Positions 2,190 to 2,967 of a DNA stretch of 4,245 bases are shown here, piece by piece. Position 1 is the stretch's first letter; every line of letters starts with the position of its first letter. Position numbers and translations under genes: made by a program. This stretch comes from a virus (Duplodnaviria > Heunggongvirae > Uroviricota > Caudoviricetes), in the IMG/VR virus record IMGVR_UViG_2671181188_000006; one strand, 5' to 3'. Below the pieces are notes generated by a model. The model was not told the origin of the DNA. It ran no database searches and was given only the letters and a program-made list of their open reading frames with translations.

Positions 2190-2753
2190 ATGACTGAATT
2201 AACCAAAGAATGGCTACAGAACACGATTACCGGAATTGAGTCATCACGGGATGAAATACCGTTCGGACTCGATGAAGATCAAAACAACATGCTTACCGCA
2301 TTAAAAATTGCACTGGCATCACTGGCATCAGTATCGGATGAACGGGCAGCCTATGAATTATTTATGGAGAAGCGTTTCGGGGAATCTGTAGATCGCCGCA
2401 GAGCAAAAAATGGCGATAGAGAATACATGGCATGGGATATGGCGCTTGGCTGGATTATCTGGTGTCACCGCGCCGCCATGCTTCAGGCTGGAAACTTTCG
2501 GGAAAATAAGGGTTCGTCAACCAATAATTTTCGGATAATCTCGGAAACGTCAACCAACTCTCCGGCAATCCCTGATGAGGTGTTGTCCGCAATCCTGAAG
2601 GTCGCCAGGCTTCGTGCAGATTTCGATGCTTCTGAAGTGGACAGGCGAGGTATCGGTAGTTGTCTGGATGAGGCCGAGCAAGAACTTATCGTTACCATTA
2701 ACGAATACGCCAGTCAGATCGCAGTAGAAGCGACACAGGGGGAGAACCAATGA
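2190..2753 (+). CDS. Hypothetical protein (187 aa), function unknown; first gene of a cargo module upstream of the hok remnant
   Basis: This is a 564-nt ORF on the same strand as all neighbours. The ATG at 2190 is the first in-frame start after TGA at 2184-2186. The stop TGA at 2751-2753 overlaps ATG 2750 of a downstream micro-ORF. I cannot assign a family from sequence alone. Confidence 0.7.
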   Translation: MTELTKEWLQNTITGIESSRDEIPFGLDEDQNNMLTALKIALASLASVSDERAAYELFMEKRFGESVDRRRAKNGDREYMAWDMALGWIIWCHRAAMLQAGNFRENKGSSTNNFRIISETSTNSPAIPDEVLSAILKVARLRADFDASEVDRRGIGSCLDEAEQELIVTINEYASQIAVEATQGENQ

Positions 2754-2827
2754 GCCGGCCAGATGCATTTGCAGGCGTTGCTATAGCTATTGCTTTTCTA
2801 GTATATGTTATTTGTCGGTGGGGGTAA
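2750..2827 (+). CDS. Micro-ORF, 25 aa (MSRPDAFAGVAIAIAFLVYVICRWG), hydrophobic putative single-pass membrane peptide
   Basis: GGGGGAG (2737-2743) lies 6 nt before ATG 2750, and the start overlaps the stop of the 187-aa gene (ATGA). It contains a 16-residue hydrophobic core. It is below the size cutoff of the ORF track. Confidence 0.4.
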   Translation: MSRPDAFAGVAIAIAFLVYVICRWG

Positions 2828-2862
2828 AAACGTTCGCCGGGATTCACACCAAGGGAGGGAAT

Positions 2863-2967
2863 ATGTCGGATGATATTTCACTGGTAATGGAAGGCGCTCT
2901 GGCTGTTATTGCTGTTGTGGGTGTTTACTGCCTGGTTGTGTTTTTGATGGAGCGCCTGGGGAACTGA
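2863..2967 (+). CDS. Micro-ORF, 34 aa (MSDDISLVMEGALAVIAVVGVYCLVVFLMERLGN), putative single-pass membrane peptide
   Basis: A strong SD, AGGGAGG (2852-2858), sits 4 nt before ATG 2863. A ~23-residue hydrophobic segment is flanked by an acidic N-terminus and a short charged C-terminus. The stop is TGA at 2965-2967. Confidence 0.45.
   Translation: MSDDISLVMEGALAVIAVVGVYCLVVFLMERLGN

Follow-up and report, generated by a model that had tools for sequence, protein, structure and literature searches.

Two probable membrane micro-protein genes, one of them on an optional cassette, upstream of hok/sok in a lambda-like prophage of Escherichia coli

The 4,245-nt virus sequence IMGVR_UViG_2671181188_000006 (Caudoviricetes), which is referred to here in its whole length as the window, contains just upstream of a hok/sok locus two tandem short open reading frames (ORFs), ORF1 and ORF2. 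On balance, these are probably two separate protein-coding micro-genes for small accessory membrane peptides, with ORF2 carried on an optional cassette. That the two frames are coding and are separate from each other is held with fair confidence; the functional part of this reading, namely that the products serve as membrane modulators or accessory factors, is drawn by analogy and held with low confidence.

ORF1 occupies positions 2750–2827 on the + strand and encodes a predicted single-helix micro-protein of 25 residues, MSRPDAFAGVAIAIAFLVYVICRWG. ORF2 occupies positions 2863–2967 on the same strand and encodes a predicted single-helix micro-protein of 34 residues, MSDDISLVMEGALAVIAVVGVYCLVVFLMERLGN (RefSeq WP_001278460.1). 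The gap between them is a non-coding spacer of 35 nt (2828–2862, + strand) that contains the ribosome-binding site of ORF2, and the frame of ORF2 is -1 relative to that of ORF1. An earlier reading of the window from its letters alone (the sequence-only reading) had proposed two tandem hydrophobic micro-ORFs of these coordinates and lengths, with near-consensus Shine-Dalgarno (SD) sites at proper spacing and a single predicted membrane-spanning segment in each peptide, and all of these points are borne out.

The ATG of ORF1 overlaps the TGA of the upstream 187-residue gene in an ATGA at 2750–2753, a geometry that the earlier reading did not mention. The SD site of ORF1, GGGGGAG (2738–2744, + strand), lies near the end of that gene's coding sequence, 5 nt 5' of the ATG, and in other lineages the same place is taken by AGGAGGT or GGAGGA. 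The SD site of ORF2, AAGGGAGGG (2851–2859, + strand), has its GGAGG core 4 nt 5' of the ATG. In a ranking of the 157 ATGs of the window (both strands) by anti-SD duplex energy, ORF2 (-11.8 kcal/mol) came second, in a tie for the best value, and ORF1 (-9.4 kcal/mol) came sixth. The remaining top-ranked ATGs are the starts of long ORFs, mostly genes called in RefSeq, except for an internal ATG at 2870 that uses the SD of ORF2. The GGAGGGAATATG stretch in the ORF2 site is identical in every locus examined, which is not independent evidence of conservation, because the loci were retrieved by a pattern containing GGAGGGAATATG.

A single strongly hydrophobic stretch of 17–19 residues, sufficient for a membrane span, is present in each peptide. 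The best 17-residue Kyte-Doolittle windows score 2.66 in ORF1 and 2.95 in ORF2. The two frames had also been described as invisible to the ORF track, and this stands for ORF1, which is left uncalled by RefSeq/PGAP, but not for ORF2, which is annotated as a hypothetical protein (WP_001278460.1; ECs_5710 in strain Sakai).

ORF1 is a divergent member, shorter by two residues, of a 27-residue family of lambdoid and Shiga toxin (Stx) prophages that is defined here by the pattern MxWPEAF...VYSICRWG followed by a stop. The family consensus is M[STN]WPEAF..VG.AMAVALVVYSICRWG and then the stop. The census of the family draws on an exhaustive search with HMMER plus three IMG/VR scans and comprises 274 loci and 155 DNA haplotypes; the HMMER search returned close relatives and two long proteins of low identity. 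The listed haplotypes all begin at an ATGA overlap, and they do so whichever of several unrelated sequences ends the gene upstream (PEPPQEVRQ, VEDILR and, in the window, ATQGENQ, each directly before the stop). This overlap, preceded by an SD in the terminal part of the gene upstream, is common to the family and the window. For example, in the L002 prophage the upstream gene encodes a DUF551 protein that is mostly unrelated along its length, the ATGA overlap is kept, and ORF1 reads MIWPEAFAITGVAIAIDFLVYVICRWG.

The window ORF1 has in common with the family a hydrophobic core and a place as the final cistron ahead of a module junction, and at its C-terminus it reads FLVYVICRWG with an immediate stop, in agreement with the VY.ICRWG-stop of the family. 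At its N-terminus it reads MSRPDAF in place of WPEAF (W to R, E to D), and its length of 25 instead of 27 residues reflects an in-frame 6-nt deletion relative to L002. It is treated as a divergent member of the family because the surrounding DNA is homologous, the sequence from position 2764 onward being 93–95% identical to that of other lineages.

The family is widespread in E. coli, one of its subtypes being present in 1631 of 5426 complete genomes (~30%). In species-representative genomes, a degenerate strict DNA pattern detected it only in Escherichia and Shigella, plus one Acinetobacter contig. The latter match (L309; Acinetobacter idrijaensis JQCU01000559.1) is on a contig of 369 bp and is probably contamination. 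A match to the family is also seen at 13106–13204 of the phage record PP818812.1 (Actinobacillus phage vB_Apl-pPE4); both records are assigned to hosts outside the enterobacteria. Phage 933W (AF125520.1; L315 2501–2584), the prototype Stx2 phage, has an unannotated 27-residue homolog of ORF1, MTWPEAFANVGTVMAVVLVVYSICRWR followed by a stop, whose ATG overlaps the stop codon of L0139, the gene before it, and which lies directly 5' of hokW/sokW. The K-12 prophages Qin, Rac, and DLP12 have neither ORF1 nor ORF2, and the small-protein screens in K-12 are therefore not informative on them. A PGAP call for the family was absent in all three RefSeq loci inspected, in one of which only 5 nt separate ORF1 from the following gene. 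No description of the ORF1 family was found, and there is no Pfam, PHROG, or NCBIfam model for it; the peptides, their WP accessions, and the locus tags are not mentioned in the main text of any paper.

The substitution pattern in ORF1 is that of a coding sequence under purifying selection. The pooled ratio of nonsynonymous to synonymous substitution rates (dN/dS; Nei-Gojobori method, NG86) is 0.28 (codon bootstrap confidence interval [CI] 0.15–0.44), the values for the shifted frames being 0.90 and 1.96, and the motifs WPEAF and VYSICRWG are retained over about 35% synonymous divergence. In almost all of the 72 unique 27-residue coding sequences the stop directly follows the final Gly. The codon of this Gly varies (GGA in 47, GGG in 12, and GGT in 6 sequences), and the stop codon is either TAA or TGA. 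Since both codons vary while the place of the stop is kept, what selection maintains is this position and not a particular sequence.

For ORF2, 15 unique coding sequences from 119 loci were available, with 6, 7, and 18 segregating sites at the first, second, and third codon positions, respectively. Their dN/dS is 0.21 (CI 0.09–0.50), or 0.19 when the lineage with the split frames and a run of five G residues (G5) is taken alone, and the shifted frames give 0.76 and 1.23. The comparison of the divergent locus L064 with the metagenomic contig L316 shows six synonymous differences and one nonsynonymous difference in ORF2. The conservation with synonymous bias, by which the sequence-only reading had proposed to check its ORFs, is thus found for both, and in the proposed frames only. 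Its view that the strong SDs reflect real translation rather than chance ORFs gains support from purifying selection over hundreds of prophage loci and from ribosome profiling of an ORF2 paralog, described below.

These values also bear on the possibility that the peptides have no function, and that the frames persist because they lie in young, hitchhiking DNA or because translation acts in cis, by carrying ribosome traffic to hok/sok or by protection from Rho. Such an explanation would be consistent with the close similarity of the ORF2-bearing sequences (mostly >90% identical), with the location of ORF1 exactly at a mosaic module junction, where hok/sok is the next element in 167 of the 274 sampled loci, and with the tolerance of variants that read through the C-terminus, such as a 53-residue form found on at least 24 contigs. 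It does not, however, predict a dN/dS well below 1 in the proposed frames only, nor a stop position that is kept through synonymous Gly codons and alternative stops, nor the retention of WPEAF and VYSICRWG over the divergence given above. Moreover, ORF1 is also found without hok/sok, packed tightly between other genes. A lack of peptide function is therefore considered quite unlikely, and two selected coding sequences remain the preferred reading.

ORF2 lies within a presence/absence cassette of 173 bp (2833–3005, + strand), on which are the greater part of the spacer, including the ribosome-binding site of ORF2, the whole of ORF2, and a palindrome. Its limits emerge from alignment to loci in which ORF1 and hok are present and ORF2 is absent. 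In these loci, ...CGCTGGGGATAAAAACGGTTTGC... leads directly into hok/sok; at the same place the window has ...CGGTGGGGGTAAAAACG, then the 173 bp, and then GTTTGC.... Imperfect direct repeats flank the cassette, TCGGTGGGGGTAAAAACG on the left (2815–2832, + strand) and TCGGGCAAAACG on the right (2994–3005, + strand; TCGGGTAAAAACG in most other loci), and their forms may be written TCGG(TGG)GGGTAAAAACG and TCGGG(T/C)AAAACG, respectively. The cassette may have arisen by insertion, or may have been lost from the other loci by deletion.

The cassette is present in 674 of the 5426 complete E. coli genomes (12%), mostly of Shiga toxin-producing E. coli, with a median of three matching places per genome among those with any match to the cassette query. 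It was not found in any of 50,697 phage records, and its main carriers may be prophages that seldom turn up as induced phage. An exact 23-mer of ORF2 had zero matches in species-representative genomes. The perfect 16-bp palindrome TATGGGAATTCCCATA at 2978–2993, just after ORF2, has a 22-bp form, CGATATGGGAATTCCCATATCG, in most other loci, and its RNA hairpin has a z-score of -2.35. It is unlike an intrinsic terminator, because no T-run follows it, and may be a protein-binding site. An example of the 22-bp form is at L002 4224–4245; the palindrome is intact in L064 despite the diverged 3' end of ORF2 there, and has two changes in L316.

Ribosome occupancy has been reported for a close paralog of ORF2. 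Among the 465 translated intergenic ORFs that Hücker et al. (2017, PLoS One; PMC5597208) described in strain Sakai is XECs145, with the sequence MCYLSVGVKTFAGIHTKGGN followed by MSDDISLAMEGALAVIAVVGVYCLVVFLMDRLGN. In lysogeny broth (LB) it had an RNA value of 79.1 reads per kilobase per million (RPKM), a footprint RPKM of 346.1, a ribosome coverage value (RCV) of 4.35, and a coverage of 0.99; the corresponding values in brain heart infusion (BHI) were 121.3, 150.1, 1.14, and 0.84 (PMC5597208). It was predicted to be an inner-membrane protein with one transmembrane helix, and was modelled as an ORF of 54 codons with a non-ATG start further upstream, so that it extends over the spacer and the 3' end of ORF1; ORF1 was not recognised, and no function was assigned (PMC5597208). 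The study took only ORFs of at least 30 residues and removed identical ORFs (PMC5597208), so that ORF1 was never assessed and other copies of ORF2 were collapsed.

XECs145 is the ORF2 paralog of the Sakai prophage Sp6 and is now annotated as ECs_5710. It differs from ORF2 in being a copy in another prophage, and resembles it in sequence (31 of 34 residues identical, 91%) and in context, as it lies between an ORF1 homolog, unannotated and just upstream, and hok/sok, within the interval between the genes P and Q. At 90% clustering, ORF2 and ECs_5710 group together among E. coli hypothetical proteins. ORF2 is thus essentially already known, being annotated and having a paralog that is reported to be translated. 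ORF1, as judged from its sequence, is a new and well-supported candidate for an unannotated small membrane protein gene, notable for its spread and for its presence in Stx phages.

The question of whether the two frames belong to one gene is raised by a search with the ORF1 and ORF2 peptides joined end to end, which retrieved rare proteins of 70–74 residues that consist of ORF1, the linker VKTFAGIHTKGGN, and ORF2. In the DNA of three of these (L003, L004, and L005), the G5 run of the window (2820–2824, + strand), which forms part of the last two codons of ORF1 (TGG GGG, followed by TAA), is replaced by a run of six (G6), which fuses the two frames. In L006 the fusion arises otherwise, by an extra T earlier in ORF1.

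It is therefore conceivable that ORF1 and ORF2 are halves of a 74-residue two-helix protein, joined either by -1 slippage of tRNA-Gly or by reversible slipped-strand mutation between G5 and G6, as in phase variation. The three G6 contigs, which encode intact 74-residue fusions and come from independent samples and two backgrounds (P0016 and P0018), agree with this, as does the fact that the frame of ORF2 is open through the spacer, where, moreover, the differences between the main lineage and L064 are biased to third positions of that frame. Re-pairing from GGG to GGG beside a stop codon is also a known shift-prone context, as Weiss et al. reportedly found in 1987. If the two were a split protein, the separate peptides and the fused product of 74 residues could both be present in one lysogen population, through low-level -1 slippage or through reversible G5/G6 mutation, and the excess of third-position changes in the spacer would then reflect selection acting on the fused frame.

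The distribution of the G run, however, does not fit such a gene. Among 121 sampled loci, 107 have G5 with split frames and 9 have GAGGG, in which a G-to-A change makes ORF1 two residues shorter. G6 was confined to the three loci that had been retrieved by way of the fused proteins; it was not found in about 115 unselected IMG/VR loci, and an exact 86-mer with G6 had 0 copies in the 659 complete genomes matching it, the best match being a G5 copy. G5 is, besides, short for a contingency tract. The slippery sequence is not conserved, as G5 is limited to the main lineage and there is no heptamer of the canonical form X XXY YYZ, and no stimulatory RNA structure was found 3' of the run (fold z = -0.36), where a predicted hairpin includes the run itself. 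In the divergent pairs of L064 and L316, ORF1 ends in TGG TTA TAA without a G run, and the spacers differ by 1 nt in length, so that ORF1 stands at +1 to ORF2 in one of them, and in the other the two share a frame with a stop between them. The spacer of L071 tolerates a 1-nt deletion (A4 instead of A5). Most members of the ORF1 family end in GGA TAA and have neither the G run nor ORF2, and ORF2 retains a strong SD and an ATG of its own.

A single split gene is accordingly regarded as very improbable. Equally doubtful is the related proposal that the two peptides cooperate as a split two-helix protein, with the G6 fusions as a 'Rosetta-stone' sign of their interaction. A single ancestral gene broken by a frameshift, as well as programmed frameshifting, is rejected on the evidence of the family census, the G-run census, and the spacer indels. 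ORF1 and ORF2 are held to be separate because of the predominance of G5, the 1-nt indels in the spacer, and the absence of ORF2 or the G run from most of the ORF1 family. Since the spacer tolerates such indels and most family members lack the run, we read the fusion of the two frames, from these sequences, as incidental.

In a lineage with ORF1 and without ORF2 (L127 3001–3162; also L128–L130), a G6 run is likewise seen, TGGGGGGTGATAAG compared with TGGGGATGATAAG in related loci. Here it extends ORF1 to 53 residues with an unrelated tail, and this form is present on at least 24 contigs. It follows that frame-shifting changes at the G-rich end of ORF1 recur and persist.

Several observations weigh against the reading of two separate, functional micro-genes. 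In 9 of 10 codons read in the ORF2 frame, the spacer differences between the main lineage and L064 are at the third position (p ~0.008 by hand calculation, corrected for three frames), which is not the pattern expected of a purely non-coding spacer. The diversity of ORF2 is shallow, as its 15 unique sequences are mostly >90% identical, and its dN/dS is thus based on few substitutions. The window ORF1 has RPDAF for WPEAF and is two residues short, and could be a weakened copy. The profiling signal comes from a paralog in a different Sakai prophage and could include multi-mapped reads or ribosomes finishing ORF1, while translation of ORF1 rests on sequence, ORFs below 30 residues having been excluded from the only profiling study found. 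Finally, the proposed function is drawn by analogy and not by homology.

The window belongs to a lambda-like prophage of E. coli, and its segment 2600–3100 matches many O157:H7 chromosomes at 100% identity. In the matching RefSeq record, a cI-like repressor and Cro are followed by the replication genes (P among them), by a series of small accessory genes (DUF1627 and hypothetical proteins), and then by hokD, DUF968, RusA, and Q, in this order. ORF1 and ORF2 are at the distal end of the run of accessory genes between the replication genes and Q, just 5' of hok/sok. The upstream gene that overlaps ORF1 (2190–2753, + strand) is a 187-residue phage gene, a hypothetical protein in PGAP (WP_000137954.1) that matches phrog_14306 (function unknown). 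The hok/sok type I toxin-antitoxin locus starts 75 nt 3' of ORF2 (3042–3216, + strand; Rfam RF01794 [sok], 114.9 bits), and hokD is annotated in matching genomes; the locus is considered here as context only.

The hokD toxin gene of the window (3211–3315) has an internal deletion of 88 bp, with its junction near 3259–3262. Most of the Hok coding sequence is lost with it, and a frame of 34 codons remains. The best-matching complete E. coli genomes all have an intact hokD of 51 codons and are otherwise 100% identical to the window. Over the 3' end of the hok transcript and its terminator, at 3287–3368, an isrK match in Rfam is below threshold (27.2 bits vs a gathering score of 50).

In this context, the two cistrons would probably be transcribed with the early accessory-gene block. 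ORF1, the O157-type variant of its family and the last cistron of the block, would probably be translated by termination-reinitiation at the ATGA, aided by the SD in the 3' end of the upstream gene, and ORF2, with a strong SD of its own, would be initiated independently. Each product would most likely be a single-pass protein of the inner membrane with its N-terminus out and its C-terminus in, because each has one hydrophobic helix between an acidic N-terminal stub and a C-terminal stub containing Arg. The best guess for their function, by analogy, is that of accessory peptides that may bind or perturb a component of the inner membrane, of either host or phage.

The ORF1 family is uncalled in every annotated record inspected and falls below the 30-residue cutoff of the one ribosome profiling study found in enterohaemorrhagic E. 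coli with a screen for small ORFs. The addition of ORF1 and the naming of ORF2 would improve prophage annotation, and the two offer a pair of compact candidate phage-encoded membrane micro-proteins that are testable in Stx phages. No new kind of biology is involved, as small hydrophobic prophage proteins without known function are common and translation of ORF2 has already been reported.

Among the type I toxins (Hok/Gef, Ldr, TisB, Ibs, ShoB, DinQ, and Zor), a resemblance to those of the Ibs, Ldr, or TisB kind had been suggested from the sequence alone. At 25 and 34 residues with one predicted membrane-spanning helix each, the peptides are within what is expected of the small hydrophobic peptides of this class (under ~60 residues, one such helix). 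Both segments are predicted to be helical in the fused variant, for which AlphaFold gives two helices (residues 3–34 and 41–73) at low confidence (predicted local distance difference test [pLDDT] 67, predicted template modelling score [pTM] 0.36), too weak for helix packing. ORF1 and ORF2 are like these toxins in size, hydrophobicity, and the single helix only.

One may nevertheless suppose that they are toxic peptides that depolarise or permeabilise the inner membrane in the manner of Hok, TisB, Ldr, and Ibs, as effectors of killing or of abortive infection. Many small hydrophobic peptides are toxic on overexpression, and the size, hydrophobicity, and single helix would fit. Moreover, a true type I system, hok/sok, is the immediate downstream neighbour, and a weak sigma-70-like site, TTTACC-17-TATACT, is on the minus strand at 2828–2800, opposite the 3' end of ORF1. 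This site, however, has only 9 of 12 matches, its hexamers are not kept in the aligned sequences of lineages with ORF1 and without ORF2, and no terminator was found after it. A conserved antisense promoter or terminator was thus not found in the region, although a new, undescribed sRNA may be present. In agreement with the earlier remark that no similarity to toxin families could be seen, neither peptide reached the curated thresholds of Pfam and NCBIfam, scans of PHROG and PADLOC, which have no curated cutoffs, gave chance-level matches only, and Rfam had zero RNA families over 2750–2967.

The translation signals point in the same direction. Type I toxins are held at low translation by a sequestered or weak SD, a leader ORF, or a structured mRNA, none of which is seen for ORF1 and ORF2. 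Instead, these have strong, exposed SDs, with ORF1 coupled through the ATGA within a polycistronic phage operon, and no unusual RNA structure. The ribosome occupancy of the ORF2 paralog is high in healthy LB cultures, and several copies are present per strain, which also weighs against a toxic role. The organisation of ORF1 and ORF2 is therefore unlike that of a type I toxin, and the suggested resemblance is not supported, as no family match was obtained, no antisense RNA was found among the described families, and translation looks efficient. A toxic role is considered unlikely; by analogy, membrane modulators or accessory factors are favoured over antisense-controlled type I toxins.

The alternative that the sequence-only reading had also named, small membrane regulators, is plausible by analogy. 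AcrZ, MgtS, KdpF, CydX, and SgrT are bacterial small inner-membrane regulatory proteins, and HK97 gp15 is a prophage membrane protein that blocks DNA entry. The former resemble ORF1 and ORF2 in size class, in the single transmembrane helix, and in efficient translation. Among them KdpF gave the sole match, which is sub-threshold (E = 0.024, 14.7 bits, cutoff 26.85). The same likeness, which is not one of homology, extends to prophage membrane proteins of the gp15 type, and it is in the company of these two groups that the products of ORF1 and ORF2 may be placed.

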